A stretch of DNA of 64,000 nt from Candidatus Haiyanarchaeum thermophilum (lineage in GTDB: Archaea; Nanobdellota; Nanobdellia; JAPDLS01; Haiyanarchaeaceae): NCBI GenBank assembly GCA_025920425.1, contig JAPDLS010000001.1:1754-65753 (forward strand), written 5' to 3'. Shown piece after piece: positions 1 through 23,421 of the stretch (positions within the stretch are counted from its first letter, which is position 1; each line of letters starts with the position of its first letter). A program made the translations under genes and the position numbers. A model generated the notes under the pieces. That model worked only from the letters and a program-made list of their open reading frames with translations, ran no database searches and was not told the origin of the DNA.

Positions 1-3000
1 AGGGGAAGTAAGTGTTAGATAACTTGTGAAGCATCTGGACCGAGAGTGTACTCTCGTTCAACACCTCTTCTGTACAATCGCTTGTAAGATTGAATTTAAT
101 TGTGAGATTATCCCCTCTTAGCAGCACTCTTGAGGAAGATGTGAGGAAGTAGATGGTAATATTTCCTAGGAGGTTTAGAGTGTGGGGAGAGGTGAGGTTT
201 ACATTTAAGTAGCAGTTATCAGCAACTCCAGCAACCCATTCCAATGTGCCAACTGAGTATTGGCACCCCGGAATCCAACTGAAGCTCGAGAAACCTGAGG
301 CATTGGTGAGATTGTAGAAACCATTTAGCTCTCCAGTCCTATTTCTGATCCAGAAAGTAGTCATAACACCCATAGGATAGCTCCAGTTCTCTTCATCGAA
401 TACCCTTACAACGAGGTTTGCCTGTTCAAAATTCCTAATCACAGGGGTAAGATCTGGAGGTGAAACGAACTCAATAGTTACATTACTTCTCTGGAGACTT
501 GGGGATCTAATTGGAGTTGTATTGAAGCTCTGAACACCATCATCTATCTCCCACATGAAGTAATTACTTTCTCCCATATCAGAGCAAGTGAATCCAGCAT
601 AGATTACTTCACATCTGCCAATGGTTGGATAGCCAGGAGTTCCAAGAATGTAAGAACTTCCAGCCTTCATCCATGTGTTTCCCCCATCCTTACTTATCCA
701 GAGAGTGCAATTTATATCGTCTCCTTCTTCATCACGTACTTCTATAGTATAATTGAATACTCTACTCCATCCCACTATTTGATTGCTTAGATTTCTCCAC
801 TCTCCTTCAGTATGGTTGAAAATCCAAATAGTTTCATTTTCTGCTATTGGCGCTCTATTTTCTAGCCAGAACCAGTTGAGATAGAAGGTGGAGTTATCAT
901 CATAATAGCCTCTACTACTTCTGAGCCAAACAGTGTAGTTGCCTTCAGGCTTTCCTATTGAGCTCCAAGTACAATTGTACCATCCAGTACCTTCATTGTA
1001 GACTGGTGAACATTCATATTGTTGAGAAGAGGAGTTGTGAATTAAGGTAACTGAATAGGAAGAAGCATCTGGGATGAGACCTTCATCTATGCAATCTGTA
1101 GAAATGTTGAAGCGGACTATGATGTTCTGAGTTACATTGAAAGTGCTTCCTTGTGGAGGAGATTCTAAGTTATTCTTGAGCTGCCCTATCACTAAGAGGC
1201 TCCATATAGTTGACTCAACATCCTTATAGCAAGCATTTCCAGAGACACTTACTTTCCAGAATTGAGTTCCTACTCCATAATTGCAATCTGGGTCAAAGTA
1301 GTATGTGGAGAAACCTGAAGCATTCGTGAAGCTGTAGTGGCCTCCATCGAAGTTAGAACCATCGTAGGTGAAGAAGAAGTAAAGGCTTACTCCTTCTCCT
1401 ACATAAGAAGCTCTATCAACATCATAGACCCTCACAGTAAATGGAGTAAATACAGTACCTTCCCTCCTAGCCTGAGCTCCTGCACCTGCGATCACCTCAA
1501 TTGTAATATCATCCTTTTCTAGAGTGAGGCTGCCCACAGAGCTTTCGGTGGAGAAGCCATGTTCATCTGTTGCAATGAACTTGAAATATACTGAGCCAGA
1601 CAGGTAATCATTACATTCAAAGGTGTGGTTGAAACTCACATCGCTCCAAGTAGTGCTTGAGATGATCGTAGATGTTACATATTTCCATGGTCCTCCAGGA
1701 GAATTAGCAACCAACAGGCTCAGGTTATTGGTATCGCCTTCCACATCTCTGAAGCTCACAGTGAAGGTGAAATTCCTTCCCCAACCTTCCCTACTTGGGT
1801 TAACTCTAGGATTTTGGAGTTCAGGTTTAGCCCCTAGGAAGAAAGCATCCTCTAGGAGGAAGTATGTACTCTCATAATATGGTTTTGATACATTCATACT
1901 AATATTGTACCATCCTAGGGAGAATCCGGTTGAGTCCCAGCTTGTTGTGTATGTACCATTTAACAGATCAATAGCCGGGTCTGGATAGGGCGTATATGAG
2001 GCTGCTCCCTGTATTACTCTAAACCTTACCGTGGCTCCAGTTATGTTACTACAATCATCACTTACATTCCCTAGAATCTCAATAACTTGATCTCTCCAGT
2101 AATAGGCATGCTGAGGTGAGAGTACATTTGCTACCAAGCTCGAGTTGATAAGCAATGTTAGGAGATCGGTAGAGTTAGCGCCATAGTAATAGGGAGATTC
2201 ATCCACTCCACCTTTCCACGTTTGCCAACCTACTTGATAAGCACAGTCAGGATTAAAGGAGAGATTTAAGTAGCCATAAGATGTAGTAGCAGGGATCCTT
2301 GGCCCCTCAGTAACACCATCTACAGTGATCCAAAATCCTCCAGTTAACCCACTGAGCGGATTTCCATATACATCTCTTACCCTTAAAGAGAGAAGCGTGG
2401 CATTGTTTCCTACCCTACTCACACTACTCTGATTTCCACTCACATATTCTATTACTACAGGCATCTTCGTCACGGTGAGAGATTGAATAGGTGTTTGGGA
2501 GACTCCTCCAAAGCTATCAGTAGCATTGAAGAACCACTCCCATTCTCCTATTTCTGAGGGCCCATACACACGGCTGAAACTAAGAGTGGTATGAATACAA
2601 TCGTCGCAACTTCCAGAATCTATTAAAGTCCAACTTGAGGTATCTTTCCTTCTATGCCAGAGATATACGGTTACGTGATCGTCATCGTCCGTTACATTAA
2701 CTTTAAAGACAAATGAAGTACTCCAATAGCTTGAAGAAGGGGTTACAAGAGCTTCTGCGAGGATTGGGGGAACCTCATGGAAGAAGGCTTGAGAAAATAC
2801 CTTGCTTTCGAAGTTGTAGAGGAGGCCCGAAGAATTCATTCTTATCCAATACCAGCCTGATGGGTTATTGGATATATTCCAAGTACAATTGAATACTCCG
2901 GGAGATTCACTTCCTACTGGCTCACAAATTGAGAGGAAGGAATCATGGGCTACCTCAAATGAAACGTCTACTTCGCTTATGTTTTCACCACATTCATCCT

Positions 3001-6000
3001 GTACGAGTCCTCTAATTGTGACATTTTCATTTGACCAGAAAACGTCTCCATTGGGAGCTAGAAGCGAATTTCTTGCCCATCCCTTTATGTTCAAAGTGAA
3101 GTTTGTTGAGGAATTAACATCTTTATAACATACATCTCCAGTTACTCCAGCCTTCCAAAGCTGGGTGTTCACAGAATAGCTACAGTTTGGGGAGAAGTAG
3201 ATGGAAAGATAGCCTTCAGAATCGGTGAGATTGCTCAAGCCCTCATCAAAGTTTGCTCCATCAGTAGTGACCCAGATCCTACCTAGGACTCCTTCTCCCA
3301 CATATCTATCAGCATCTAAATCATAGATTCTTACCCTCAATAGGACAGCCTCACTTCTATTTACCCATGAGTCATTTCCTGAAGAGAATTCCACATACCT
3401 AATCTCTGCGTCAGCTTGCGAGATAGAGAAAGCAATTCCTCCTCTATCCGTAGAGTTATACTCATCACTTGCATTGAATTTGAAATAATAAGTACCTATA
3501 TCGTTGCACGTAAAGCCCCTGTACTCGAAGGCAAGCTCAGTGACCCTTCCGCAATCGTAGCATAATTGAGATGAAACATAACTCCAAGTTAAATTATCAG
3601 GACTCAACCAAAGACTTACATTAACTGTATTTGCATTTGGATCGCTCACATTTACCTTAAAGGTGAATTTCTCTCCCCATCCACCATCCTCCTCAAAAAT
3701 CACCCTCTCTCCCTCTAAGATTGGGGGCTGCCATACTTGGTATATGAAGAAAGAATACCCTTTCTTTCCTTCCCCCCTATTGTAATATTCCACATTTTCC
3801 CCAATCATCGTTACATTATACCAACCTTCTGGAGCAGTGGTTGCATTGAAAGTACAATTATATGTGCCATTTCCGAGATCTTCTACAGGGGAACAGGTGA
3901 AAGTATCTCCAAATCCTAGACTCGTGAGGTTGAAAGATATTGTAGCTCCAGTGATATAAGTGGATTCACATTCATCGATCAAGTTTCCATAAATTGGGAT
4001 GTAAAGCTCCAGTTCCCTGTAATAAATTACCCCATCCGGGAATGTGACGACAGGTTTGAGATCTCCTATGATCGTTACATTGTATATTGGGGAGGAAGTA
4101 TCTTTGTAGCAAGCATCAGCAGAAATATAGGTGTACCAGTTTCTTTCTCCCACTTCATAATTACAAGTGGGATCAAAGGAGAAGTTCACATATCCTGAGC
4201 TGTTTGGGATATTACTCCCATAGATGAGGAAGGTGCTTCCATTATGGACGCTTAACCACACTTCAGGCTTTACAGCTGCTCCTAGCAACGTATAGGCTGG
4301 AGCATTTCTATCTGCATCATGGAGATAGAGGAGGAAGGAAATCGAATTCGAACCACTTCTATTTACTGAACCCCCATTGCCTAGAATGTGGAAGAAGAGG
4401 ACATCGTCCTTAGCAAGGAGATGGAAGAGAGAGGAAGTGTTTGAGTAGGTTTCTGGCACTCCTGGTTGAGAAGCATTAAATGCGAAATATCTGAAGCTAC
4501 TAGCTTGATAATCTTCACAAGAATATTCTCTAATGAATGTAACCAAGGTATTGGTTGGATTCTCCACATAGGTGCAAGAAGTTACATTCCAATCCGAGGT
4601 AGGAGTCCTTTCTAGGAGGCATACATATACTGGAGCATAATGATTTACTACTACGCTAAAGTTATGTGGCTCTCCCCAACTCCCATCTCCAGGATAGCTT
4701 ACACTCGGATTGGAGAGTTCTACTGGAGTGATGAGGAAGAAAGCATTCTCCATCGTGGTAAAGTTTGAATTGTAGAATTCCTTCATCACTTCCAGAGAAA
4801 CATTGTACCATCCCCCTCTCTTTCCGGTAGAGTCCCAATTACAAATATATAGGTTTCCCGAAGAATTGGTGGTAAATCCTGACTCGGGACAATAATAAAT
4901 GTCATCTTCATGTTGGAGTTTGAATCTAACACTAGCATTAGCTATTGGGTTGGAGCATTCGTCATATACGAAGCCTGAAAGTAAAATAGATGTGCCGGCA
5001 GTATAATTAGCATCTCCACTAGGACTGGCTATTAAGCCCTGAAGATCTCCACGAATGGTAACTTCCAATTCTGGAGTAGTATTAGTAGCATAGCATGGAT
5101 CACTTGAATTTACCTTCCATCTCCTCACTCCAACCTCATAGTTGCAATTGGGGTTGAAGTTTAAGGAGTAGGAAGTATCCTCTATGCTTTCGAACTCCTC
5201 TACCCATGTATCCCCACTTCTTTGAATCCAGAATCCTACATTAGAAGTAGGGATAGCGGTGATATATTCTCCAGTTACCAGATCAAATATCTGGACAGAC
5301 AATTTTACAGTAGAATTAGGTTGACTATCACTTCTGTTAACTACTGAGCCATTACCTGAAAGGTGGAGGATAGAAATTGGAGATTTAGTTACGTTGAATG
5401 AGATTAGAGAAGTTTGATTGGAGAATCCAGTTACTGAAGTAGCATTGAATTTAGCTGACCAAGATCCGATATCAGAACAGGTGAAATTCTTCCAAGTAAG
5501 GAAGAGGTAATTACTGCAGAAACTACACTCAGTACTATTTTCCAGTATCCAATCCCCACTTCCGTACCTGAGCCAGAGATAAGCAGTAATTGTCTCATTA
5601 TCCTCCCCACTCACATAAACTGAGAAGTTGAAAGGTCTGAGTTCCCAACTTCCTTCCACTGGCTGCACCGACGGTTGCTCCAGTCTTGGGATACTTGCTA
5701 GGAAAAAGGCATTTTCAAGCTTCACCGAACTTTCCCAATAATATGTTTTGTTTACCTTCATGGTAACATTATACCAACCAAGCGGAGCTGTCGTGGGTAT
5801 AATGAAAGTAGTGTAATAACTTCCCCTCAATGCGTTATAGCTTGCAGGGACCTCTATCACATAATCTGAATGTTGAAGCTGGAATATGGGTGTGGCATCA
5901 GTAATAGTATTTCCGCAATCATCTCTTACAGTACCTTCTAGAGCAACTTCCATACCATGAGTGTAATTGGTAGAACCATTTGGTAAGATGATAGTGGGAA

Positions 6001-9000
6001 AGAGATCTCCATATAAGAGGAATGAAACTGAAGAGGTGGAAGCTCCTTTATAATAAGTAGCCTCTAACACACCTCCTCTCCAGTAATTCGGCCCAAGGTA
6101 GAAATGGCTCTGACACCATCTATCTGAGGTATTTCTCATTTCTATCTTCGCTAGACCATTTTCATCTATCGCAGGATCTGGATAGAACCTTTGGAAGGTT
6201 TCAGCACTTCCATACTTTGAGATCTCTACATAGTTCTGACCAAATACTAAGAGGCTGGCCCAGCTCTCATTATCCAAATCGTAGATCGAGAGGGTAAAGT
6301 TGAAGGGCTTGCTCCTATTTACTATTTCATTAGGAAGTGGAGCTAATAAAGTGACTTCTACATCGTCCCTCTCCACATTGTAGACATAGCCAAGGAGCTC
6401 AGAAGTTCCATCCTCATTACTAGCATTGAACTTAAACTCCCAACTTCCAATGTCAGTTGGTTGATAGTCATAACTAAAGTCCACCTCACTCCAGTCAGCA
6501 CAAGAGCTACATATCTTGCTTCCGATCAACTGGTACTCCGCAGCTCCTACAGGCCTATGCCAAGCATATACTATTACATCTCTTCCGAATCTGTCCCTCA
6601 CCAAGACACTGAAGTTAAACTTCTCTCCCCATCCAGCTGTGGAACCTGGAGGCGCTCTTACTCCATTTATCCAGAGCGTGGCATTCGTGAGGAGTGGAGA
6701 ATAAGTATAGATCTTGGTTTTGATGAATAGGGGCTGTTGTTCTATGAATACCTTACCAGTTTGCCAAGTGTATGCAAGCTTTTCCAAGCTAATATTCCCA
6801 TTAGATCCATATGTGGCATCTACGTAAACTTGCAGTAATAAACTCCTGTTAGCTTTTCTGTATCTCCAACACTCCTCTTCATAGATTGTATAGTTGCTCC
6901 AGCCCTCGTTGCTCTCGGCTCCTAAGCCATAATTCTGCCATGCTAAACTGCTGCGATTTTCATCATCGGTAAAGCTAAGGGAAGCCTGACCAATAGTTAC
7001 ATTTTGACCATACCAATCATATCTCAAGAAGAAATCAACCTCCTTGAGCCGTTCGTAGCGTGCGTTCTCCGGTTTGCTGAAGGCATATTCAACTAGTCTG
7101 GAGGAATTATTTCCAGAACAGTAAAGCTGCACGTCCTCAATAAATGTGGTATAATTCGTAGTATCCTTGATTCCTTGCACTGTTAGAATGTGGGCTCCAA
7201 GCACAGAGCAGTTCAGGGTGAAGTGAAGATAGGTGCTATTTTTGGCCTGTAAGTCAGAAAGTGACCAGATTATCTTTCTAGATGTTTGATTCCATACCCC
7301 ATTTTCATATACCTGAACTACCTCACACCCTGGAGGTATGAACATGCTTATATTCCAGCCTGACGCCAAAGTATCTCCTATATTAGTTATGTGGAGGCCG
7401 TAGTTATACTCTTTATTGAGCTGAGCGCTCCTAGGCTCAGGCCAGGGATAATCTTCCTGCTGAATGACTTCCAGATCGAACTGTAGATGACTCTCGTTAG
7501 TGTAGTTAAAGGTGGAAATGGTATGATTTTCACTTTCCTCTAGGAGCTTATTATCAAAATTTACCTCATATTTAACTCCTCCAGCTTGAGCAAGGCCTGG
7601 AGGAGATTTGATCTGATATACTAGGATAGCATATTGATTAGGTGCAATTTTTCCAAGTTCCCAAGTTATGATGTTCTCCTCAAGATCTACTGAAGAAGAA
7701 CCTGAGATATTTCCTAGGATCATTGGATTAGCTGGAGTCCACCCTATTGGCACAAACTCCTTTACTAGAGTACTCCCATTAGTAGTTCCGCATCCTTTAT
7801 TGTGGATCACGAGCCTAGATTTGAAGACCAAATTACTGGCTACTACGCTTGGGGTCTCCCTAATCACCTCTAGGATTGGAAGGGAGCTCCCTTCCTCTAT
7901 TGTGAATGAAGCATTTTTGGACTTCGTCACCCCTAGTGGATACATGTATTGCACAGTAGCATTTATGGCTACAGTCTCGCTTTGAGCATTACTAGAAGTG
8001 AGGTCAAATCTTACCAGATATTTCCCAGGAGTGGAAGCTTCTATCAGCTGATAAGAGGGAGTATAGCTCCACCCAGTTGGTACGATGAGAGAAATATTGT
8101 ATTGTATGCTCTCATTGAATGGATGATAGACTATTACATAATATGGTTCAGTGGTGGAATTGCACATCCATCTGCTACCTGAGCTTTCAACCACTACATC
8201 TTGGAGGAGTAAAGTCTCAGTCCTCTCAGAAGATGATGGGCCACATTCCACATAAGTCTTGAGAACATAAAAGCCATATTCCCAGCCTATAGTACTTATC
8301 CCTGTGAAATTAAAGAAAGCAATAGAGTCCCCAGCCAAGCTTATGGGTTGGGATGAAGAATAGAAGATAGCCCCGCTAGTATTGGTGATATTTAGCCACA
8401 AAGTCCCTGAGCAGGGAGCTTCATAGGAGTTGGCTATCCTCACACTTACATTAAATTCCTCCTCACTGCCCTCTAATCCAGAGAGAATTGCCTCATTTAC
8501 TTTAACTAAGATATCTTGAATTTTGATAGCTTCAGTATAGTAAGCTTGCAGTTCAGCCCAGCTCAAGTTAAATCCATTATCGCCTACATTAGCTATTCTT
8601 ACCTTACATCTCCCATTTTCATCTGCATTTAGCTGATTTTGAAGCATTAGGATGGAGAGATTTTGTTCTCCTGTGAGATTGATCTTGAGGCTGTGGAGGA
8701 TATCTAGCCAGTTAGTCCCATTGTAGCTCCATACTCGGAGTACAATTTCATAGGGTGAAGCTGTTACGTTACCTATAGTGAGAGTTAAGTTTGCTATTCT
8801 ATAATCTCCAGCTTCACATTCCCAGTTCAATACCTTTTCCTCATTTTCATTTATTATGAAGGGCAACTGCTCGAGGGGAGGAGAAGGTTGCTTTAATTTA
8901 TACACAGTAAAGTTATCGGAGGAGGCCACATCACTTCCAGCATTACTTGAATTGACAACTATCGTTACATTAATTTCTCCATATGTAGTAGGAGTAATAT

Positions 9001-10870
9001 GCCACCATACCGGCTTGTATTCACCCACAGCTATTATTCCTAAGGATTTAGTTACCTCATCTACATACCAACCTTCTGGAAGGATGATGGTAGCATTTAC
9101 ATCCTGAGCATTTCCAACCCAACTGGTTAGAGTAGCATTTATGGTAAAGTTCCTATACTGAAATGTTTCCTTTGGAGCATAGATCTTATATATTTCTACC
9201 TGAGGCTGGCATCCAAGCAATTGAATAGTTATAGTATAATTCTCAGAGACTACTGGCTTATAATTTGGTTCAGTTGGAAGTATCTCAGCAGCCCATAGTT
9301 GGTCACCTTCGTACCATCCCTCACAATTGGTTATGTTGAAATAGAAGCTAGCATAACCCTCCTCATTGGTGTAGTTCTCACCTATTACTTTGAAGCCTTC
9401 TGGATAATTGGGATTGTAGAGCTTGAAAGTCACACGTGCTGAGGGATTAGTTACATTATAAGTGCCTCTATCCAAATCGTAAATTCTTACTATTAGCCAT
9501 TGAGGCTGAACATCCTTAATTACCACTGTATTGTTTCCTGCTACATAACTCATGTTCACATCATCTTTTTCCACAACTACTGAGAGGACCTGAGAAGTTT
9601 CAGCCCTTCCATCCATCTTGAACTGATAATACCACACCCCCTGCTCACTGGCTGTGAAATTCCTAAGCCAATATTTGAGCTCCTGAATGCAGTTAAAGCA
9701 TTCCGTTGGAGTTTGGTTTACACATGTGGGAGACTCACACTTAAATACTGGAGGCCATGCAGTATGCATATAGAGGCTGACATTCCAAGAGTTTTCAACA
9801 TCTCCAGAAGTGGCTATTACTGAGAAATTCCAGTTTGGATATCCCCATCCTTCCACAGTAGGAAAGGCAGCAGGATTTTCAAGCTTCAAGCGGGGGTGTA
9901 AGTAAAATAGTCCAGGAACTCCAATTTTAGAAGTGCTATTCTCATAGTAATAAGGAGCAATGGCTCTCATAGTTGAATTATACCATCCCATTGGAGTGAA
10001 AATGCTGGTTGACCATTCACATGTATAGGCATTTGCTCCTACCCTCGAGACTGGAGTGCATTCAAAGCTAGTAGTTGTATGGTTGGCGAAGAAGGCAACT
10101 GTTGCTGTAAGAGGATCCCCGCAATCATCAGTAGTAGCTCCTAGGAAGAATATGTCATCTTCCTGAGTATAGTTGGTGAGTCCATCTGGTCTTTGAAAAT
10201 CTAGAAGAATATCACCTGTGACGAGGAGAGTCAAGTAATATTGGCCTTCAGTAGATACATCGTAATAGCATTCACTTCCAGAGACTACAGCTTTCCATCT
10301 TTGATAGCCCACGCCATACTTTGGAACACAGCCTGCTTGAAAGGAGTAGTAGGCAAAACCGGAAGCATCTGTAAGGTTGGTGGTGCCAGTATCGTAGATA
10401 TTTCCATCTATCGTTACGAAGAAGGTGACAGGTAAATTATGAATGAAGGTACCGTTAGCATCCCTTACTCTCACTCCTAGTAAAGTAGTAGTTCTACCTC
10501 TCCTAGTTTCAGTATCATTTCCAATTACTTCTTCGAAGAAGATGGTATCTTTAGTTATGGTAAAGGTAGCAGTAGTGGAATTTGTAGTACCTGCATTATT
10601 CGTGGCATTGAACTTCACGAAGACGATAGGACTTATGTCCTCACAGCTTGGGTCAAATTCGAAGGAAAAGTTCAGCCATTCTCCTATGCTTTGGCCTGGA
10701 GCAGGGTAAACTTGGCACTCTCCTACAGGCTTCCAAGGGCCACTACCAGTCTTGCTAAACCACGAACAGACATAAACATCACTCTCACTATTGCTCACCC
10801 TCACACTTATATTGAAAGTGAAATTGAATCCCCAACTTCCTGTTGAGGTACCAGTCTCGTGAGAAACTAT
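1..10870 (-). repeat. Protein-level repeat array: nine copies of a ~314-338 aa unit (two, then a ~1,070-aa spacing containing non-repeat sequence, then seven tandem)
   Basis: Recurrent motifs GxWGxxFxFxV..D, CxxC, FTCxDxG..FKFNA, GN...V.R, FxPxCxYxVG..W, DxC, GWYN. Anchor spacings are 987, 3216, 984, 969, 999, 954, 942 and 1014 nt. Confidence 0.85.
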
Positions 10871-14734: not shown

Positions 14735-14817
14735 GTTGCAGCTTCCACTCCTTCCTCAATAGAGGGATTATTTATAATAACTTATAAAACTTTCATCCCG
14801 AATGAGATTAGGAGAAT

Positions 14818-15585
14818 TCAACTTGAAGCGACGAAGAGGCTTTTAATTTTCTGAAAAATCCCAACTTTTTCTTCCATTCCCACGAGTTTTTTTGCCAATT
14901 TCTCAAATTCCCTAGAAGATCGAGCCTTAGGATTTAGGATGGAAACAGGTATTTTGAAAACATTGCTTTCGATTAACTCCTTATCATAGGGGATAGTAGC
15001 CAATATAGGTAAATTGACGCTTACCCCTATTTCCTCTGGTCTAACTTTATATCTCTTCTCATACATATTTACTACCACTCCCAAAATAGGGATATTGTAG
15101 GAACCTACTACTGCTTTCACTCTCAAAACGTCAAGTACACTGCTCAAAGTAGGAATGGCTACGAGCATGACCTCTTGGGAGCAGAGAATGGCTGAAATTG
15201 CCTCCCTTCCGAGTCCAGGAGCACCATCTAATAGGACGAAATCATTCTTACCCACGAGGCTGCTTAACTTTAATCTCAAATCGAGAAGGTCTACTCCATA
15301 AAGATCTCTTGGGGAAAGGGAGCCTGGGATAATCTTCACACCACTCTTATGTTCATAGATAGCATCTTCGATTTCATAATCTCCCCTCAATACCTGATTC
15401 AAAGTTACTGGATAATCGTAAAATCCAAATAGGAGCCCAAGATGAGAAGTGGTAAGATTGCAGTCGATTGCGATTACTTCTTTTCCCAGTCTAGCTAGTT
15501 GGATTGCCAGATTTGCTGTTAGAGTACTCTTACCTACACCTCCTTTACCTGAGAGTATACCAATTACCCTACCCACTTCCCTCAC
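14818..15585 (-). CDS. minD: Archaeal MinD/ParA-family ATPase
   Basis: Deviant Walker A SGKGGVGKST, IDCNL, LLDGAPGLG, GVVVN and IPYD motifs; 255 aa. Confidence 0.9.
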   Translation of the reverse strand: MREVGRVIGILSGKGGVGKSTLTANLAIQLARLGKEVIAIDCNLTTSHLGLLFGFYDYPVTLNQVLRGDYEIEDAIYEHKSGVKIIPGSLSPRDLYGVDLLDLRLKLSSLVGKNDFVLLDGAPGLGREAISAILCSQEVMLVAIPTLSSVLDVLRVKAVVGSYNIPILGVVVNMYEKRYKVRPEEIGVSVNLPILATIPYDKELIESNVFKIPVSILNPKARSSREFEKLAKKLVGMEEKVGIFQKIKSLFVASS

Positions 15586-16975
15586 CCAGTTCCTTCTTGA
15601 TTTCCTCTATCTTCTGCATGCATTTATTACGTACCTCTTCATATGCCTCCTTTGAGATATTTCCCACAGCATATTCCTTCTCCACTATCCTCACAAGTTG
15701 TCTGAGCCTTTCCAGCTTTCTCCTGAGGATCCCTTCCTTCTCCCCCTCCAGCTTTCCCTTCAGAGCTTCTATCTCTTCCCTACTCACACTTTTTGGGATT
15801 AACTTGGCTCCAGGCCTAGTCTTTTCCATTGCCTCTAACAGTTCGCTCCCATAATAGCTGAGCACCCGTAACAATCTCCTCTCTGACCACTTATGGTAAA
15901 GAAAGATGAGGACCGATGGTATAATTATCGCAGAGAGAAGGAGGAAGAAATTCATGTAGGATTCTTTTATTACACCTGGTAAAAACTGTAGATTGGGATA
16001 AAGAATCTCTGCCTCATCTAGGAAGTCCTTGGCTGCTGATAGGGAAACTAGAGCTTCATTATACTTCTCGACATTTAAATATTCCTTTGCAAAATTAATT
16101 TGGGTCTCTGCCCTCTGAATGAGAGCAGAAAATTGTGTAGTATTTTTTCCCTCAAATATGGCCTGTTGCAGTTTGAGCTTTAATTCATTTAGCCTAGCTT
16201 CAAGCTTCTTCAGATCACTTTCTATAAGTTCCCTCCTCGAGGCAAATACTTGGAGGAGGCTTTCCTTTCTGTCACTTACCCCTTCAGCTGTGACAGCATG
16301 GATACTTAGGTTATATTGCCTAGTCTCAGCGTTAGGAGGAATCGTAATCCTCATAGAGAACACTAACTCCTCCCCGGGTTTGAGTACATCATATTTTACT
16401 GGAGAGATAATCAACCACTCACTGCTTATCCCATAGACGAGAAGACTAACATTATGGAGTACTTCCTCCCCCAGATTTTTAACACTAACAGTTAAGAGAT
16501 TGGACCAGCTCCGTTCCCCATTGATTTCTTTTGGCCATGAGGTTATGGTGATATTAGCTCCTTTGAATTCGAGTGGGCTTTTCATCACGTAAAATGATTG
16601 AGAAGTGGTGATGGGAGAGCTATAATTAGTGAATTTCACTCTCACTTTGAGAAAATATTTGCCTGGAGGTTGGGAGGAAAAGATATAGATATTCTTTGGT
16701 ATCCTTAATGTGCTCGGAGCCTCAGCTAGATAAGTGGAAAAACTATCAGCTCCCCAAATCTCTGCCGTTTCCGACTCAACCCAGAAGTCCACATAGGCGA
16801 TAGCCCCAATTCCAACAGTTTTATTTAGTACTATCTCGAAATGTAAGAACTCGGCTTGATAAACTGTCAAATTGTGAAGATTAATTTCTACGGTACCAGT
16901 AACATATTGGGCTTCAGCTATAGAAATGATAAAAAGGAATCCAATACCCAAAAATAAGATTCTCCCCCACCTCAT
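15569..16975 (-). CDS. Membrane-anchored surface protein: signal peptide, Ig/CARDB-like domains, coiled coil, TM helix, ~100-aa cytoplasmic coiled-coil tail
   Basis: ORF track 15569..17029. The ATG at 16975 (MRWGRILFLGIG) is preferred because a BRE/TATA-like CGAAAAAATATAAG lies ~25-35 nt upstream. CARDB-like TVSVKNLGEEVLHNVSL; TM FFLLLSAIIIPSVLIFL. Confidence 0.75.
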   Translation of the reverse strand: MRWGRILFLGIGFLFIISIAEAQYVTGTVEINLHNLTVYQAEFLHFEIVLNKTVGIGAIAYVDFWVESETAEIWGADSFSTYLAEAPSTLRIPKNIYIFSSQPPGKYFLKVRVKFTNYSSPITTSQSFYVMKSPLEFKGANITITSWPKEINGERSWSNLLTVSVKNLGEEVLHNVSLLVYGISSEWLIISPVKYDVLKPGEELVFSMRITIPPNAETRQYNLSIHAVTAEGVSDRKESLLQVFASRRELIESDLKKLEARLNELKLKLQQAIFEGKNTTQFSALIQRAETQINFAKEYLNVEKYNEALVSLSAAKDFLDEAEILYPNLQFLPGVIKESYMNFFLLLSAIIIPSVLIFLYHKWSERRLLRVLSYYGSELLEAMEKTRPGAKLIPKSVSREEIEALKGKLEGEKEGILRRKLERLRQLVRIVEKEYAVGNISKEAYEEVRNKCMQKIEEIKKELGEGSG

Positions 16976-17119
16976 AATGTTTGAGGTGCTGGACAAATTC
17001 TTATATTTTTTCGAGAAGGGAGTAATCACCAGTTAGAAATAAACCATCGTCCACAAACAGGGAAGCTTTACTGAGAAAATCAAAAAATATAAAAATAAAT
17101 ATTTACCACTTCTCAATTA

Positions 17120-17773
17120 ATGACTAAAACCTTGGAGATCCCACTTGATCTCTTGGTAGGGATCATCTCTTTTTTCTGCATAACCATGATTTCCTACGGA
17201 ATGATTTCAAGATCTCCGATCGTTACAGGTTTTCAGGCAGTTTCCCAACAACAGGCCCAAGCCATTCTTACAGTGAACACATATATTTACACTAGCCTAA
17301 ATAGAACTCCAATCAACTTTACATTTGAGGGCATAGTTCCAGGTTATTGGTATAATGCTAGCAATGGAACAGATGGAAATGGATGGCCTACTACTTTACT
17401 CATGTGGTGGGAGACAAATGTTAACACAAACATCTCGTTCTGGGGAGATCCCTCATTCTGCAAGGAGGGTACTGCATGTTCAGAGGTGCTTTCAGAGAGG
17501 TTTGATATAGGAAATCTAACTTTCAATACCACTGACCTAAACTTTACCCTTCCTGGAGATCTATGGCATCACTATGTATGGGGAAAGTTTAATACTGATG
17601 TTCCATCAACTCCTACTAAAACCCTAGCTAACAAAGATATCGTGTATAATACCACATGCCCCTGTGGGGAGCACAATTATACCATTCCTATGTGGTTCAG
17701 CCTTTTCGTCCCTCCTGGTACAAGGGCTGGGAACTGGAATACTACAGTGTACTGGAGGGTAGATGAAATATGA
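17120..17773 (+). CDS. Secreted beta-sandwich protein, WxL/TasA-like subunit (copy 1)
   Basis: N-terminal hydrophobic helix then IVTGF; INFTFEGIVPG; C-terminal LFVPPGTRAGNWNTTVYWRV; paralog of 21976..22512. Confidence 0.6.
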   Translation: MTKTLEIPLDLLVGIISFFCITMISYGMISRSPIVTGFQAVSQQQAQAILTVNTYIYTSLNRTPINFTFEGIVPGYWYNASNGTDGNGWPTTLLMWWETNVNTNISFWGDPSFCKEGTACSEVLSERFDIGNLTFNTTDLNFTLPGDLWHHYVWGKFNTDVPSTPTKTLANKDIVYNTTCPCGEHNYTIPMWFSLFVPPGTRAGNWNTTVYWRVDEI

Positions 17774-18492
17774 GGGGTAAACTTGTTCTCTTGCTATTTA
17801 TAATTGGAATTTCATTAATTAGAAGCATAGCATTTGCCCAGTCTTGTGGTCTTGGTACAATGCAACCAGTGAAGGGATTTGCAGCCCTCCCAGGGAGTAC
17901 TGTGGAAGCCAAGCTTTATTTCTATAACCTTTACGATACCCTAACCACTCACGTACTCCTAACTCTAACTGATGCTCCTCCAGGATGGGGAGTTGAGATA
18001 GAGCCACCTGCCAGAGATGTGATATATGAGACACCTCTAGGAAGCATTACCGTACTAGAAAATATAGACGTTCCTCTCACTCCTAAAACTCCAAACTGTG
18101 AAGGCACCCTTGCAGGATATGAGCTAATTAGAGATACGGTAACTCCTGGGGCCTGTATTCCTGCTAAGGTAGTGTTAGTTAGGATAAAGGTACCACAGAA
18201 TGTGGAAATAGGTAAAACCTATGAAATCAAGCTCACTGCTACGGGAAGATGTCTTTCTCCCCAAGTAGGAAACGTATTTACAAGCCAAGTGAGGGAATTT
18301 ACCTTCCAAGTAAAGCCTGTATTAAGTGGGGAATTCTATGAAATAAGGAGGGAAGGAGGTTTTAGCATTTGGGATTTCATCGTTCAAAATGCCCTCCTAT
18401 TTTCCCTATTGTTAGGAGTACTTTGCGCTATAGTGATCATACTCATTCTAAGGATGATGGGGAAGCTAGTTATAGAAATTAAGCTCAAGTGA
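17770..18492 (+). CDS. Membrane-anchored Ig/NEW3-like partner protein (copy 1)
   Basis: Signal peptide ending AFAQSCG; PPGWGVEIEP; C-terminal TM helix; ATGA overlap with upstream gene; paralog of 22509..23204. Confidence 0.65.
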   Translation: MRGKLVLLLFIIGISLIRSIAFAQSCGLGTMQPVKGFAALPGSTVEAKLYFYNLYDTLTTHVLLTLTDAPPGWGVEIEPPARDVIYETPLGSITVLENIDVPLTPKTPNCEGTLAGYELIRDTVTPGACIPAKVVLVRIKVPQNVEIGKTYEIKLTATGRCLSPQVGNVFTSQVREFTFQVKPVLSGEFYEIRREGGFSIWDFIVQNALLFSLLLGVLCAIVIILILRMMGKLVIEIKLK

Positions 18493-18528
18493 AACAAACT
18501 TAATATAAACTAAGCCTATTAATGCTTA

Positions 18529-20334
18529 ATGCAACCACCAAAACCTCAGCCCCCAGGGCGTGAGCTTTCCATACTTCTTCTCTTGATATTTGCCATTTTC
18601 ATTCCTACTAGCGCCTACGGAACTTCTCCTTCCCAACTTGCTCCAGTAATTGCTAATGTAAGCCCAAGTTATTCAGAGTTTTCATTTTCTCCTAGCAAGT
18701 TGATAATTTTCATGCCTCCTAATGAAGTAGATGGGTTTATCATTACTGCTAGGGCTGAGAGAGGCAATCTACCCATCCATCTCATTTTAACTCTAGAGGA
18801 GAGCTTCCTAAACTTCTCATATGTATATCCACATTACTTCCTCCTAGATGTACTAGAGGAGAGAAACTTCACATTCCACTTGGATACTTGGGGAGTAGAA
18901 GTTGGAAACTACAGTGGCTACATTTTAGGAAAAGTAGAGGAGACGAATTATACTTCTCTCCTTCCAATCAATCTTACAGTTTCCACTGATGTAGGGAGAT
19001 TTTTAATTCAAGTAACAGATGAAGCCTACAAACCCTTGCCTAATGCTTCTATCAGTATTTATCGGGGACTTGAACTCATAGAAACAGGAATTACTGACGA
19101 GCATGGCTTTTACAGGACACACTTTTATCCCCTAGAGACCTACTATGCCATAGTTGTAGGAAAGGAAGGATACTCTTCTAAGGCCACTGGAAAAAGGCTA
19201 GTGAACTATACCACTTTTGTCCAAATAGTGCTAGGGGGAACCCCTTTTCTCGCATTTTCCCCAAATTATGTATTCTTGGTAATGGATCTCAATCAAACTA
19301 AGACGATAACTCTCAGACTAGAGAACTGGGGGAATGGGAAGGAGAGATGGATAGATATCCTACCGAATCAGAAATGGATTAAGGTACAACCTACTTATCT
19401 TGAATTTCTAGAGCCTGGGGGTTTTAGAGAAATTACAGTTACTGTTGGGCCATTTTTCAAAGAGGGAATCTACTTGGGAGAGATTAAGGCATATGGGTTT
19501 AGAAGTACTGCGAGTGCAATTATTCAAGTACAAGTTTCTCCACCCCCTCCACCCCCCACTGTGCCTCCAACAATTCCTCCCACCCTCCCGAACGTTACTG
19601 TACCTATCATAATAACTCCACCTCCACCCCCTCCACCCCCCATCGTTAAGTTTCCAGCAGTAGATGTGGAGTATCCTAGAACTCTGGAGCTTACGAGAGG
19701 AGTATCTAGACTAATCTTCGTTAAGGTGAAGAATGTAGGTGAGGTGGACTTACACAATCTCACCCTTGAAGCTTATGGAGAAGGCTTACTAGTGGAAATT
19801 TACCCCTCTGCCTATCTACTTTGTCCAATGGGAGACTCTAAAATTTTTATCATGAGGATTTTGCCTCAGGAGGAAGGGGTAGGCAATTTAACACTTAAGA
19901 TAGTGTCTAGGGAAATTGAAACTTATAGGCAAATCAATTATGAGATCAAAATTTCACCAGTGGATCCTGAGGTTCTAAGGGGGGAGATAGAGGCTTTGAG
20001 ACAAATTCTGAGGGTGCTAGAAAGGGAGCTAACTAGTCTGGGAGAGCAGGGTTTTAGTGTTACTGGAGCCTTCTCTTTTCTTTCAGCAGTTGATCAAAAG
20101 CTTGCCAATGCTGAGCTCTCACTCAAATTTGGGAGGCTATTTGAGGCTAAGGGATGGATTGATGAAGCCACAAGGGATATAAGTGATCTAATATCAGTGA
20201 TAGATAGAGTAAGGGCAATACCCCCTCCTAGGATAGGGCTAGAAATCTGGTTCATTCTAATTTTGCTCGTAATTTTAATAATCCTACTTCTACTCCTACT
20301 ACTCATATGGAGAAGGAGAAAAAGGGAAAGATGA
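18529..20334 (+). CDS. Surface stalk protein: Ig domains, carboxypeptidase-regulatory-like domain, polyproline linker, CARDB-like domain, coiled coil, C-terminal TM
   Basis: PLPNASISIY...GITDEHGFY motif; PPPPPPT..PPPPPPPP; FVKVKNVGEVDLHNLTL; TM followed by RRRKRER. Confidence 0.7.
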   Translation: MQPPKPQPPGRELSILLLLIFAIFIPTSAYGTSPSQLAPVIANVSPSYSEFSFSPSKLIIFMPPNEVDGFIITARAERGNLPIHLILTLEESFLNFSYVYPHYFLLDVLEERNFTFHLDTWGVEVGNYSGYILGKVEETNYTSLLPINLTVSTDVGRFLIQVTDEAYKPLPNASISIYRGLELIETGITDEHGFYRTHFYPLETYYAIVVGKEGYSSKATGKRLVNYTTFVQIVLGGTPFLAFSPNYVFLVMDLNQTKTITLRLENWGNGKERWIDILPNQKWIKVQPTYLEFLEPGGFREITVTVGPFFKEGIYLGEIKAYGFRSTASAIIQVQVSPPPPPPTVPPTIPPTLPNVTVPIIITPPPPPPPPIVKFPAVDVEYPRTLELTRGVSRLIFVKVKNVGEVDLHNLTLEAYGEGLLVEIYPSAYLLCPMGDSKIFIMRILPQEEGVGNLTLKIVSREIETYRQINYEIKISPVDPEVLRGEIEALRQILRVLERELTSLGEQGFSVTGAFSFLSAVDQKLANAELSLKFGRLFEAKGWIDEATRDISDLISVIDRVRAIPPPRIGLEIWFILILLVILIILLLLLLLIWRRRKRER

Positions 20335-21932
20335 GGAAGTATTTACTACCCTCCTTCCTACTCTTACTTTCCTTGATCTTCTCCCCAGCTCTAGCGGCCG
20401 AGTCAGTGATAAGTGTGAATAAGAGAGTAATTGAGTTCATATCCATTCCAAACTCCTCTACCTATTCGAAATTCTCAGTTATCGCCTATGGAGGAGATGA
20501 TAAGGTGGAACTCTCCATTGCAGTTGTTGGAGATTTGAGCAGTTGGGTGAAATTTTCTCCCATAAATTTTACCCTCCTTCCTAACACAACCCAAGATATT
20601 TCAGTAGAGCTCAATGTACCAAATGTAAGTGCAGGAGAGTATAGAGGAAAACTTTTAATAACCTCAAAGGGAGGGCAGGTAAATGAAATAGGCCTAAGTG
20701 TAAAGGTTATTGAACATGGAGGAAGGTTTAAGGTGGAGTGCTTGTCAGAAAGAGGAGTAATTAAGGATTTTTCTGTCCTAATTTATGCTGGAGATCAGCT
20801 CGTGGAGAGCGGGCTCGCAAGCGGAGGAGTATACCTTTCCAATTATCTACCCTACGGGGAATATAAGATAAGGGTGGAGAGCGCCGGCTACTATGGAGCC
20901 GAGAAAAACCTACTCCTAAACAAAGTAGAGCAGATAGTGACCTTCAAGTTAGTTGAGATGGAAAAGATAAAGCTCACCATCATTCCTAGGAAAATTGTGG
21001 TGAAGTTCTGCAGTGGGGAAGTGGGCGTTACTTCACTTCAGTTGATCAATGGCGCTCCTTATTCAATTCCTGTGAAGATAAATACTTCCTCTCCAAATAT
21101 AAAAGTAGAACTACCAAATTTTACCTTGGCTGCTTCTTCCACACAAGAGATACGAGTTAGATTTAACTTCTCAGAGGGAAATTACTCCGAATACATATAT
21201 GTAGAACATGAGGGGGTAATAGATGAGATAAAGGCAGATATTTCTTCGATTCCTTCTGAGGAATGTAAGACCGAATTCACATTTTCTATTCACGGCAGAG
21301 ATGCGGTCAAGGTGGTGGAGAACTATACATCTATATTAGTAATTTATGTCAGCCCTTATGAAGATATGAGGAGAGTAAGAGTGATTGGTCCCATGCTTGA
21401 AGTCTATCCCTCTATTTATCCATTGATCAAGAGTGGAGACTCTGGTCCATTCTTATTGAGGATAAAGGGGACTCAAAATCTTTCAGTTTCTCTAGATACT
21501 ACAATCATTTCAGATAAGGGAGAAAGGGCATTCTCTGTAAAAATATACAGGGGAAATACACTGGATAAGGAGGAAATAGCTCAAGAGATAAAGGAGCTGA
21601 AGAGCTTAATAGAGGATCTCAAGAGTAAAGTAGCTGATCTGACCCTTACTTTAAAGGAAGAGGAGGGAGAACGGATAAAGGTGATTTCCCTAATGCTTTC
21701 AGAATTTTCTGTCAAATTAGATGTAGCACGCAGCACGCTAGATGCTAATCTTACTGTTTCCAAAGCATATGTAGAAAGTATTTCGCTGGAGCTTGGAAAT
21801 ATCCTAAATGAGCTTTCGAAGTTCGCAAGGGAGGAACATTACTGGATGAGTTATCTCAACTATCTGTGGCTTCTATTTCCTCTTTGTGGGATATTCTTCA
21901 TAGTGTTTTTAGTGAGAAAGAAACTTATGTGA
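20331..21932 (+). CDS. Surface stalk protein: Ig domains, carboxypeptidase-regulatory-like domain, coiled coil, C-terminal TM
   Basis: ORF track 20307..21932; ATG 20331 (MRKYLLPSFLLLL) overlaps the upstream TGA. Same domain order as 18529..20334; TM LWLLFPLCGIFFIVFLV then RKK. Confidence 0.7.
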   Translation: MRKYLLPSFLLLLSLIFSPALAAESVISVNKRVIEFISIPNSSTYSKFSVIAYGGDDKVELSIAVVGDLSSWVKFSPINFTLLPNTTQDISVELNVPNVSAGEYRGKLLITSKGGQVNEIGLSVKVIEHGGRFKVECLSERGVIKDFSVLIYAGDQLVESGLASGGVYLSNYLPYGEYKIRVESAGYYGAEKNLLLNKVEQIVTFKLVEMEKIKLTIIPRKIVVKFCSGEVGVTSLQLINGAPYSIPVKINTSSPNIKVELPNFTLAASSTQEIRVRFNFSEGNYSEYIYVEHEGVIDEIKADISSIPSEECKTEFTFSIHGRDAVKVVENYTSILVIYVSPYEDMRRVRVIGPMLEVYPSIYPLIKSGDSGPFLLRIKGTQNLSVSLDTTIISDKGERAFSVKIYRGNTLDKEEIAQEIKELKSLIEDLKSKVADLTLTLKEEEGERIKVISLMLSEFSVKLDVARSTLDANLTVSKAYVESISLELGNILNELSKFAREEHYWMSYLNYLWLLFPLCGIFFIVFLVRKKLM

Positions 21933-21975
21933 AAAATTTTTAAATAAGGGGAGCAATTTCATAAAGTGATGTAAT

Positions 21976-22512
21976 ATGAAGGGAGGAAAAGAGATCTATT
22001 TTTCCCTATTTGTCTTCCTACTCGCTTTGACTTTCGCCATATTCAGAGAACCATTCACAGCAGGGATTGTAAGGATTACGGGCCTAACCCAGTGGAGCAG
22101 TGTTGCAGAAGCAACAGTTACGGTACTAGAATACATTTCTGCCACGCTCTTTAACGTACCAATCCAATTTGGTGATCTAAATCCAGGCACCTCAGGACAG
22201 CTTGCTATTAATAATCCAATGCAGATCCAAATCGGAGGAGAGACAAATGTTCCATACAATATAACCTTGGAAGGAACATCAAATTTCGTGAGCGGAAGCT
22301 ATACCTTTAGCATTTCTAACTTAGAGTTCAACACGACTACAACTCAATGGACTCAATATGAGTTAAATGTGGAGAAAGATGCCTACACCAATTTGCCCCC
22401 TCCAGGAGGAACTCCAGTGAACCAAAGTGTGTGGCATAGGATAAGTGTACCAGCAGGCCAAGTTGCAGGTACCTATGTTGGTAATTTAATGGTGAGGGTG
22501 AAGAAAGCATGA
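21976..22512 (+). CDS. Secreted beta-sandwich protein, WxL/TasA-like subunit (copy 2)
   Basis: Hydrophobic N-terminus, RITGL, TLFNVPIQFGDLNPG, ETNV, ISVPAGQVAGTYVGNLMVRV. Confidence 0.6.
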   Translation: MKGGKEIYFSLFVFLLALTFAIFREPFTAGIVRITGLTQWSSVAEATVTVLEYISATLFNVPIQFGDLNPGTSGQLAINNPMQIQIGGETNVPYNITLEGTSNFVSGSYTFSISNLEFNTTTTQWTQYELNVEKDAYTNLPPPGGTPVNQSVWHRISVPAGQVAGTYVGNLMVRVKKA

Positions 22513-23204
22513 TGAGAAAGAAGTACTTAACTTTAGGAATCCTAGCCATCCTTACGATTTTCATTAGAACCCAGCCGATATATGCCCAAAGCTGCGGGTT
22601 TGGAGCTACCCCTCTTTCCGCCAGAGCTTCAGCTATTCCAGGACAAAAGGTAGTGGTAACTTGGAATTTGTACAATATGTACAGTGACAGGAAGACGCAT
22701 ATCTTGATCAACTACACAAGTGATGTGGGGTGGAAGGTTACAATAGAACCTCAAGCTAGGAATGTGAGTTATGAGCTACCTGCTGGAATAGTGACGATCT
22801 TAGAAAATTTAGCATTAGATCCCCTTCCCCCAGTGCAATATAAGCCAGAGGTAATTCCGTATGGAGTTAACTATGTGAAACATCCTACTGCAGATCTTTA
22901 CATTCCAGCTAAGACTGTTACCTTTACTATTGAGGTGCCAACTGATGCGAAAATAGGAGAGCGCCATACTTTCCACTTCAAGGCGAAGGGAGAATGCTTC
23001 TTGGGTACCGGAGCAGTAATTCCAGCATTGGAATTGGGATTAGATTTAACTATAGATGTAGTTTCTCCAGAATTCTATGAGAGGGAACTAATCTCAGGAG
23101 CACCTTGGTATCTTCAGTATGCTTGGGCTATAGTTACTGCAGCTCTATTAGTAATTGCAGTAGTTACTTTAATAATCCTGAGGAGGAGAAGGATCCCCAC
23201 GTAA
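22509..23204 (+). CDS. Membrane-anchored Ig/NEW3-like partner protein (copy 2)
   Basis: IYAQSCG, GWKVTIEPQARNVSYELPAGIVTILEN, GECF, EFYE, TM + RRRR; ATGA overlap with upstream gene. Confidence 0.65.
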   Translation: MMRKKYLTLGILAILTIFIRTQPIYAQSCGFGATPLSARASAIPGQKVVVTWNLYNMYSDRKTHILINYTSDVGWKVTIEPQARNVSYELPAGIVTILENLALDPLPPVQYKPEVIPYGVNYVKHPTADLYIPAKTVTFTIEVPTDAKIGERHTFHFKAKGECFLGTGAVIPALELGLDLTIDVVSPEFYERELISGAPWYLQYAWAIVTAALLVIAVVTLIILRRRRIPT

Positions 23205-23284: not shown

Positions 23285-23421
23285 CGGGCCCGGAGGGATT
23301 TGAACCCCCGAAAGACCAGCTCTCACTGCTCAGAACAGGTCAGTTCTCTCACTGATCGACCCGCTATCAGGTCTTCATAGCTTAGGAGGCTGGTGCCCTA
23401 TCCTGGCTAGGCGACGGGCCC
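23285..23421 (-). tRNA. tRNA-Arg(CCU) with 61-nt intron at 37/38 (23322-23382)
   Basis: GGGCCCG/CGGGCCC acceptor stem, D-loop GG-A20, CCAGC/GCTGG anticodon stem, anticodon CCT at 23386-23384, GTTCAAAT T-loop. Confidence 0.9.
23322..23382 (-). ncRNA. Intron-encoded box C/D guide sRNA
   Basis: C box AUGAAGA (23378-23372), 12-nt guide CCUGAUAGCGGG, D' UCGA, C' GUGAGAG, 12-nt guide AACUGACCUGUU, D box CUGA (23333-23330), closed by a GC/GC stem. Confidence 0.8.

Follow-up and report, generated by a model that had tools for sequence, protein, structure and literature searches.

We examined an envelope gene cluster of Candidatus (Ca.) Haiyanarchaeum thermophilum that occupies the first 23 kb of a 64,000-nucleotide stretch of DNA, hereafter the window (contig C1, positions 1754–65753). 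The genome measures 723 kb in 14 contigs, is 92% complete, and carries archaeal large-subunit rRNA and archaeal RNase P RNA (Rfam). The original prediction for this cluster, made from the sequence, had described nine consecutive genes for eight surface proteins and a MinD ATPase, set in two divergent arms around an AT-rich spacer, ending at a tRNA-Arg gene and free of interspersed metabolic genes. This description held throughout: all nine open reading frames (ORFs) lie where they had been placed, each non-MinD product begins with a hydrophobic signal or anchor, MinD is recognized by the model TIGR01969, and no metabolic gene interrupts the series. The predicted extent of at least 23 kb is right for these nine genes and too short for the locus, which actually spans ~36 kb when the remainder of its largest gene, on contig C9, and two coiled-coil genes are counted. 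Relatives that share the locus carry the labels Ca. Nanoarchaeia, Nanoarchaeota, and Woesearchaeota and come from hot-spring and Guaymas samples, which places the host among the DPANN archaea, in the class Nanoarchaeia.

The minus-strand arm consists of C0 (15569–16975), minD (14818–15585), and the 5′ part of a giant gene (ORF 2–14734, start codon at 14734), whose N-terminal 4,911 codons lie in the window before the ORF runs off its edge. The C0 ORF opens at a GTG at 17029 (486 amino acids, aa), but the ATG at 16975 is likely the true start, as the alignment to its ortholog in Ca. Nanoarchaeia DRTY-6 (G013), a genome of another family, begins there. The minD start overlaps the end of C0, and an 83-nucleotide (nt) gap separates minD from the giant ORF. 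Across the spacer (16976–17119; 144 bp, GC content 0.31 vs 0.42 for the window), the plus-strand arm encodes A (217 aa, 17120–17773), B (240 aa, 17770–18492), C (601 aa, 18529–20334), C2 (~533 aa, 20331–21932; the ORF opens at 20307, with a likely start at 20331), A2 (178 aa, 21976–22512), and B2 (231 aa, 22509–23204). The A/B and A2/B2 genes overlap by 4 nt, and the other gaps of this arm measure 36–43 nt. Within the spacer, direct reading reveals a TATA-like A/T box ~20–35 nt upstream of each of the two start codons. Several products are paralogs: A and A2 (E = 4e-5), B and B2 (E = 2e-22), and C, C2, and C0 (E ~1e-6). The locus is bounded by the tRNA-Arg(CCU) gene (23285–23421, minus strand), which was detected by Rfam at 39.7 bits and missed by ARAGORN; its CCU anticodon and 61-nt intron were read directly.

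The giant SPEARE protein and its companions

The giant ORF is still open at the end of contig C1, after 5,495 codons, 1,753 nt of the contig lying beyond the window. Contig C9 ends with the same 127 nt with which C1 begins, and across this exact overlap the frame continues on C9 (39948 to 30511) for 3,146 more codons, giving a gene of ~25.8 kb and a joined product of ~8,600 aa. In G013, the giant ortholog is a single uninterrupted ORF of 12,055 aa with the same architecture; it is collinear across the C9/C1 junction with 36–38% identity, a value that reaches 71% over its last 621 aa. A contig of a same-genus genome (G001) is likewise collinear over the junction, with 59% identity over residues 4370–8600. 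A search for the 187-nt junction in JGI metagenome contigs, where records of this genome may be missing, did not find it.

The joined protein has an N-terminal transmembrane segment (residues 26–52) and a second near its C-terminus (8197–8237), followed by 363 residues. Its ectodomain is built of Ig-like repeats of ~320 aa, contains 351 N-glycosylation sequons, and ends in two NEW3-like domains. The repeats give weak matches to MG2, Big_1, Big_7, Filamin, Invasin_D3, and DUF11, and no laminin-G, protease, or toxin-like region was detected in the giant. The C-terminal tail matches HerA_C (4e-11), DUF87 (1e-10), ResIII (1.6e-5), FtsK_SpoIIIE (1e-4), and T4SS-DNA_transf (2e-4), as well as solved HerA structures (5e-7) and, weakly, CedD, TraC, and TraD. 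It contains the Walker A motif GATGSGKS and is predicted to be a cytoplasmic P-loop ATPase of the HerA/FtsK/VirB4 superfamily.

SPEARE proteins, which occur in Nanohaloarchaeota and other DPANN archaea, were described by Hamm et al. 2019 (PMC6642349), with type members from Ca. Nanohaloarchaeum antarcticus and Ca. Nanopetramus, as proteins of this same topology with a conserved cytoplasmic domain, first called restriction-enzyme-like; homologs were listed in Woesearchaeota, Aenigmarchaeota, and Altiarchaeales. Reva et al. 2023 (PMC10266531) re-read the domain as a VirB4/TraG-like ATPase and proposed a role in secretion. The giant is of the SPEARE type because a transmembrane helix and a cytoplasmic HerA/VirB4-like ATPase end the protein; compared with the type members by their descriptions, it is a new, large member of the family. 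The rod of the original prediction is therefore not a passive one. Like those proteins, the giant has an adhesin-like ectodomain of several thousand residues with a single transmembrane helix near the C-terminus, then a HerA/VirB4/TraG-type P-loop ATPase predicted to be cytoplasmic, followed by a coiled coil. Its ATPase-bearing base is the best conserved part (71% to G013, 88% within the genus), and homologs of the giant occur in genomes of the Aenigmarchaeota, Altiarchaeota, and Woesearchaeota type. It differs in that its ectodomain consists of ~320-aa Ig-like repeats, and the published descriptions (PMC6642349, PMC10266531) include no MinD, C0-type partner, or adjacent pilin-like genes.

A base module of 617 aa (the ectodomain base, transmembrane helix, and ATPase) has at least 562 homologs, among them ~725-aa proteins in Aenigmarchaeota, Altiarchaeota, and others. 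In the groups listed in the SPEARE paper, homologs are ~50% identical over all 617 aa of the base. Among 401 genomes of the class, 43 encode the base, in ORFs of up to 12,056 codons. When the G001 contig (C3:1–12685) is aligned to the joined giant, the ectodomain is ~59% identical and the 617-aa base 88%; such rapid evolution of the giant ectodomain is what a host-facing surface would lead one to expect. In G013 (C3, ~41700–41891; locus L010), the giant ORF remains open for a further 65 codons upstream of the start matched to that of the window giant. These codons encode a winged-helix-like peptide (MNHKEIKEKILELLKRSSPRSTGEIAEELNISW...), which may be an N-terminal cytoplasmic extension or merely an upstream in-frame stretch.

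Four further genes accompany the giant. C0 comprises a signal peptide, a NEW3-like beta-sandwich, a coiled coil, a transmembrane helix (357–381 in the numbering of the 486-aa ORF that opens at GTG 17029), and ~100 aa of cytoplasmic tail. In every case (window, G013, G021, and Aenigmarchaeota), its translation is coupled to that of MinD. MinD scores 212.1 bits against TIGR01969 (curated cut-off 201.75), with weak NCBIfam matches to BcsQ and CpaE-like Ssd, and has a deviant Walker A motif, KGGVGKS (direct reading), and a C-terminal amphipathic tail. Downstream of the giant stop, two coiled-coil genes, cc1 (223 aa) and cc2 (366 aa), occupy C9:30511–28857, and cc2 matches (E = 4e-26) a 525-aa Aenigmarchaeota coiled-coil protein encoded after a gene for a DUF87-transmembrane protein. 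Three Aenigmarchaeota contigs encode, in this order, such a DUF87-transmembrane protein, a coiled-coil protein, a C0-like protein, and MinD. In a phylogenetic tree, the MinDs of the window, G013, G021, and these three contigs form one clade (support 96/96), which covers two DPANN phyla and is apart from the other MinD/ParA paralogs of the genome. The conserved gene order and the MinD clade together indicate that C0, MinD, the giant, and the coiled-coil proteins form a conserved module, to which this MinD is dedicated.

One motif, E(E/Q)(Q)Y..G.IS...YEE(I/V), recurs in the C0 tail (encoded at 15569–15900) and cc1/cc2 and is also present in the Aenigmarchaeota coiled-coil partner and C0-like protein; Pfam, SHOCT included, yielded no family for the C0 tail, cc1, or cc2 at E ≤ 1.

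The A, B, and C families of the plus arm

A and A2 combine an N-terminal signal or anchor with a conserved N-terminal strand and a pilin-like Ig fold. A search with a profile of A2 and A recovered a family of 368 representative clusters. Most members are stand-alone proteins of 150–220 aa, and many others are ~250–2,200 aa long with the A domain last. Compared against Pfam, 69 members fell into no family, and none matched WxL at E ≤ 0.01. The AlphaFold2 (AF2) model of the A2 monomer reached a predicted local distance difference test score (pLDDT) of 91.4 with a 69-sequence alignment (44.5 with five sequences). Using Foldseek against solved structures, we found that its top matches are FimF, FimA, FimG, CsuA/B, Caf1, PapA, and CfaB; the matches to chaperone-usher pilins have E values of 3e-4 to 4e-3, probabilities of 0.99–1.0, and TM-scores of 0.35–0.6. 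Against viral structures, Foldseek returned nothing significant for A2. One of the best conserved segments of the family, A.VTVN..IS.TL, directly follows the signal or anchor, on the N-terminal side of the stretch that can be aligned with GH123 enzymes (see below).

B and B2 each have a signal peptide, a beta-sandwich of ~165 aa, and a C-terminal transmembrane helix, followed in B by a basic tail. We found 68 family members, all annotated as hypothetical proteins and free of Pfam domains, in bins of Nanoarchaeia, Pacearchaeota, and Parvarchaeota; a locus search started from a three-sequence subset of B gave four loci. A B profile run against the sequences of the PDB returned only noise and no chaperone. 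C consists of a signal peptide, CarboxypepD_reg-like beta-sandwich domains, a proline linker, a NEW3-like domain, a coiled coil, and a C-terminal transmembrane helix, an architecture that C2 shares. For the three families, Pfam and NCBIfam gave nothing beyond weak matches to NEW3, CarboxypepD_reg, DUF4402, and GH123_N. B is a candidate membrane-anchored chaperone or receptor for A, and C a candidate base anchor.

In A, A2, the giant, a 415-aa protein of G013, and a large protein (X) of G035, the N-terminal hydrophobic helix is followed 5–12 residues later by a short motif, [ILV]TG[FLYM]. It is encoded at 14540–14600, 17200–17240, and 22060–22090 of the window and also occurs in the G013, G020, G032, G035, and G056 loci. 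A homologs with ordinary short signal peptides (L019, L040) lack it, and it may act in its bearers as a common signal for processing or sorting.

Linkage of the two modules across archaea

The original prediction took the whole cluster as one system and named scattered homologs in relatives as the contrary outcome. Linkage is in fact conserved, with the full two-arm layout present in G013, where the giant, X, the 415-aa protein, MinD, and C0 (listed toward the spacer) stand opposite A2-B2-A-B-C-C2. The order of the plus arm thus differs from the A-B-C-C2-A2-B2 of the window. The claim of a single system stands to this extent, and falls short in that the two modules also occur apart.

An X-A-B-C(-MinD) arrangement is also present at no fewer than 12 other loci, which belong to several families of Nanoarchaeia and to non-DPANN archaea. 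Each B gene examined adjoins an A gene (17 pairs at 13 loci: window, G013, G035, G020, G032, G056, G301, G307, L019, L039, L040, L041, and L021). The nearest relatives of the window's A and B are an adjoining A and B in G013; A2 and B2 show the same relationship, which indicates that the pairs were inherited as cognate units. The X-type proteins have a variable payload with the A domain last and occur in the same 13 loci as the A-B pairs. In Ca. H. thermophilum, X lies outside the cluster, ~26 kb past the giant's 3′ end (C9:4224–1702, minus strand); the 840-aa protein has a signal peptide and, ahead of its C-terminal A domain, about seven repeats resembling those of beta-propellers. A C-type gene follows B in G013, G035, G020, G056, G021, L019, and L040. 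On a contig of a non-DPANN archaeon, the genes form a tight operon, X(1354 aa)-A(172)-B(239)-C(581)-MinD(232), and L019 carries A, B, X, and C with MinD ~3 kb away. We found no published description of an archaeal X-A-B-C-MinD operon.

Chance clustering of unrelated secreted proteins could be suspected, given that DPANN genomes are rich in secreted beta-sandwich proteins and that NEW3/CARDB-like domains are common. It is effectively refuted by the synteny in at least 13 loci of several families and phyla, and translationally coupled gene pairs and paralogous pairs inherited as units speak against it as well; we regard it as extremely improbable.

A more serious alternative is that two independent envelope systems, the SPEARE unit (C0-MinD-giant-cc1-cc2) and the A-B-C operon, are merely neighbors that share a divergent promoter region and are not coupled. 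Several findings favor such independence and weigh against a single system. The genomes G020 and G035, in which MinD is divergent from A-B-(A-B)-C-X, and the non-DPANN L019 and L040 have A-B-C(-X)-MinD and no SPEARE-like gene, while Aenigmarchaeota have SPEARE-cc-C0-MinD with no detectable A or B. In G021, the SPEARE-like gene and the X-B-C-C-C0-MinD series are on separate contigs. The same-genus G001 has the giant but no B match, in a genome that is 87% complete and split into 80 contigs. The MinDs of loci with A-B-C alone fall outside the SPEARE-linked clade, and no motif common to the spacers of the window and G013 was found. In several draft genomes, the two modules are on separate short contigs, where adjacency is not readable.

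Other findings argue for coupling. The two-arm adjacency has been kept in two families even though the plus-arm order differs, and C0-MinD is found alongside the one module or the other, ending an X-B-C-C series in G021. Homology also links the base of the giant to C-type genes of the fiber module: in genomes of family f16, a C-like gene that adjoins B-like genes matches the membrane-proximal ectodomain and transmembrane helix of the giant (E = 2e-26 to 7e-25). Across genomes, the two gene families co-occur strongly: the SPEARE base is present in seven of the nine genomes with a confirmed B and in 43 of all 401 (Fisher p = 3e-6), a statistic that ignores phylogenetic relatedness. Taken together, these data describe two repeatedly linked modules, between which functional coupling is plausible; that they are wholly independent neighbors appears somewhat unlikely.

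Two variants of the fiber module were observed in passing. The f16 genomes (L026, L028, L030, L032, and related) carry a protein of 1,400–2,500 aa, a ~300-aa protein with an N-terminal transmembrane helix, a B-like protein of 183–203 aa, and a C-like protein of 460–570 aa, with MinD nearby in G328. The Logan contigs L021:10001–13589 (ERR3772643_11548) and L041:4050–12069 (SRR23086384_709801) encode X-B-A, in which a NosD/beta-helix protein (734 or 2,211 aa) ends in an A domain and is accompanied by a B-like protein of 294 aa and an A of 168 aa. As these contigs consist nearly throughout of short same-strand ORFs, they look virus- or plasmid-like, and a mobile element may carry or exploit the fiber module.

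Elsewhere in the window, a type IV pilus cluster, with a T2SSE ATPase and two T2SSF genes at 58.8–62.6 kb, is separate from the locus, as had been predicted. At 33631–36902 (minus strand), the genes for RNase P RNA and 23S rRNA share a strand and are 35 nt apart; neither 16S nor 5S rRNA was detected in the window. The GC content of the rRNA region (0.56–0.59 vs ~0.41 for the genome) suggests a thermophile. At 53223–53306 (plus strand), ARAGORN calls a tRNA to which it assigns no identity and a 2-base “anticodon”, and which Rfam scores as a tRNA at 61 bits; it may contain an intron or an unusual anticodon loop.

Comparison with donor-strand pili and proposed model

Two bacterial systems demonstrated by experiment in 2026 resemble the plus-arm module in design and not by family membership. 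In the Elr/WxL pilus of Enterococcus faecalis, which is reported to be confined to Bacillota, the transmembrane-anchored chaperone ElrE primes and nucleates the donor-strand-exchange pilin ElrD, tip adhesins have a pilin domain as their last domain, and termination of the fiber falls to a base subunit (bioRxiv 10.64898/2026.10.17.759780). By analogy, A/A2 would correspond to the pilin, being small secreted subunits with an N-terminal strand and a chaperone-usher-pilin-like Ig fold in a cell without an outer membrane; B to the chaperone, as an adjacent-gene partner with a C-terminal transmembrane anchor; and X to the large, varied adhesins with the pilin domain last, which are analogous and not homologous. 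Both systems also have a separate base or anchor protein and several operon copies per genome. They differ in that the archaeal operon includes a MinD ATPase and has no sortase or LPxTG anchor, so that tethering would be by the transmembrane stalks of C. In the genome, neither WxL (PF13731) nor the DUF916/DUF3324 chaperone (DUF916/WxLIP_PGBD, PF06030) was found at E ≤ 10, with a Lactococcus control genome positive for WxL; with this chaperone, B shares topology alone (signal peptide, beta-sandwich, C-terminal transmembrane helix).

The Pam pili of episymbionts of the Candidate Phyla Radiation (CPR) are assembled with the transmembrane-anchored chaperones PamC and PamD and the membrane-anchored terminator PamR; their pilins are two-domain proteins reported to be exclusive to CPR, and the chaperones are PapD/FimC-like in predicted fold (PMC13278184). 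The likeness comprises a small-genome episymbiont, Ig-like donor-strand-exchange pilins, chaperone-like proteins bearing a transmembrane helix at the C-terminus, and, in PamR, a multi-domain terminator with such a helix; an envelope-spanning machine is not required. Neither MinD nor SPEARE is linked to Pam pili, the PapD/FimC-like fold belongs to the Pam chaperones, and no PapD_N (PF00345) was found in the genome at E ≤ 10. X-A-B-C-MinD would be an apparently undescribed archaeal variant of the design that pairs a membrane-anchored chaperone with a donor-strand-exchange pilus.

The modeled A2 monomer also resembles chaperone-usher pilins in its Ig-like fold. Most archaea have no outer membrane, and in this archaeal host an outer-membrane usher is therefore not expected. 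Among archaeal filaments, Sulfolobus threads have subunits that resemble type 1 pilins (PMC9715654). These threads, the ABP/TasA-like pili (PMC9245690), and cannulae share with the A proteins, as proposed here, Sec-exported archaeal subunits and donor-strand complementation, but no chaperone or assembly factor is known for them, and none of their subunits appears in the 50 best structural matches of A2. We rejected the ABP/TasA and thread loci as the same system, as their partners differ and include no B-, C-, or MinD-type genes. The archaeal secretion system of Makarova 2015 (arCOG01314/MoxR/vWA; PMC5898192) was likewise set aside as a different set of parts; Pfam and NCBIfam scans found no DUF4350 anchor, MoxR ATPase, or vWA among the locus proteins.

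Based on these comparisons, we propose, at a probability of roughly 0.55, that the locus is a conserved cell-surface, probably host-contact, island in which a SPEARE module lies beside a fiber module of the donor-strand-exchange type. The first module would be the minus-strand operon C0-MinD-giant-cc1-cc2. Its giant would expose the glycosylated Ig-repeat ectodomain, be held in the membrane by one C-terminal transmembrane helix, and place the HerA/VirB4-like ATPase in the cytoplasm. C0 would be a bitopic stalk protein, and its tail, together with cc1/cc2 and the dedicated MinD, may organize and position the base of the structure. The second module, the plus-strand operon A-B-C-C2-A2-B2, would build a thin fiber by donor-strand exchange. 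A and A2 would be exported by Sec, and their conserved N-terminal strand would complete the Ig-like fold of the next subunit, while the cognate membrane-anchored B or B2 would hold and prime each subunit as chaperone or nucleator. An X-type protein would form the tip adhesin, and C and C2 would end the fiber and tether it to the membrane.

MinD/ParA proteins position Tad pili (TadZ/CpaE), flagella (FlhG), cellulose synthase (BcsQ), and the archaella of haloarchaea (MinD4). By analogy with these surface machines, MinD may place the assembly site here. The locus shares with them a MinD-family ATPase gene among the genes of a surface appendage and differs in that the best match of the window MinD is the generic archaeal MinD model. 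The labels “fiber modules”, “stalk anchors”, and “positioning ATPase” of the original prediction are reasonable.

Several findings weigh against this model. The TM-scores of A2 to chaperone-usher pilins are modest, and structure prediction covered the A2 monomer alone. The N-terminal beta-sandwich of GH123 matches A by fold and weakly by sequence (E = 2e-4); since this is a match to a complete sandwich, A may be an ordinary, self-sufficient Ig-like domain. The B family has no detectable PapD-like or DUF916 similarity, and, at ~165 aa, its ectodomain falls short of the length of a two-domain chaperone. The N-termini of the C proteins bear a marginal likeness to the A strand (E = 1e-3 to 0.3), and the host-contact role of SPEARE is itself a candidate role.

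Some of these points would suit an envelope or S-layer-type scaffold, in which C, C2, and C0 are SlaB-like stalks and B binds the A domain as a non-covalent docking tag that would hold A-domain proteins such as the X adhesins at the membrane, with no polymerization. The order of domains in C-type proteins (beta-sandwich, coiled coil, transmembrane helix) is that of SlaB-type stalks, an A domain at the C-terminus of many large, varied surface proteins would fit an anchoring tag, the GH123 sandwich matched by the A profile is complete and does not polymerize, and B is short for a chaperone. Nothing specific favors an S-layer. Against the scaffold, the commonest A proteins are stand-alone, carry no payload, and adjoin B, and have no obvious use as docking tags; their extra N-terminal strand is strongly conserved, and Foldseek places polymerizing pilins first. 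Moreover, the WxL domain, long taken as a wall-binding tag, has now been shown to be a donor-strand-exchange pilin. We therefore consider the scaffold unlikely and retain the donor-strand-exchange fiber as the preferred reading of the plus arm.

A bolder version would join all parts in one envelope-spanning DPANN contact organelle. A ring of HerA-like ATPase tails would lie under bundled giant stalks and be placed by MinD and the C0 tail at the site of host contact; donor-strand-exchange fibers with exchangeable X adhesins would touch the host first, and the ATPase would drive DNA or protein transfer between symbiont and host. This we regard as speculative and quite unlikely; if true, it would represent a new archaeal secretion or uptake apparatus and, among archaeal pili, the first to have a membrane-anchored chaperone of its own.

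DPANN archaea live in attachment to their host cells; both this attachment and their exchange of material are poorly understood. SPEARE proteins are the main candidates for both and have had no known partners. The locus gives them conserved companions in C0, a dedicated MinD clade, and coiled-coil proteins, and places them beside a second, uncharacterized module whose parts list is that of the chaperone-guided donor-strand-exchange pili reported only in 2026, in Bacillota and CPR. If A-B-C-X-MinD builds such a fiber, this assembly logic would extend to archaea, non-DPANN lineages included, and would supply the missing assembly factor for archaeal donor-strand filaments.

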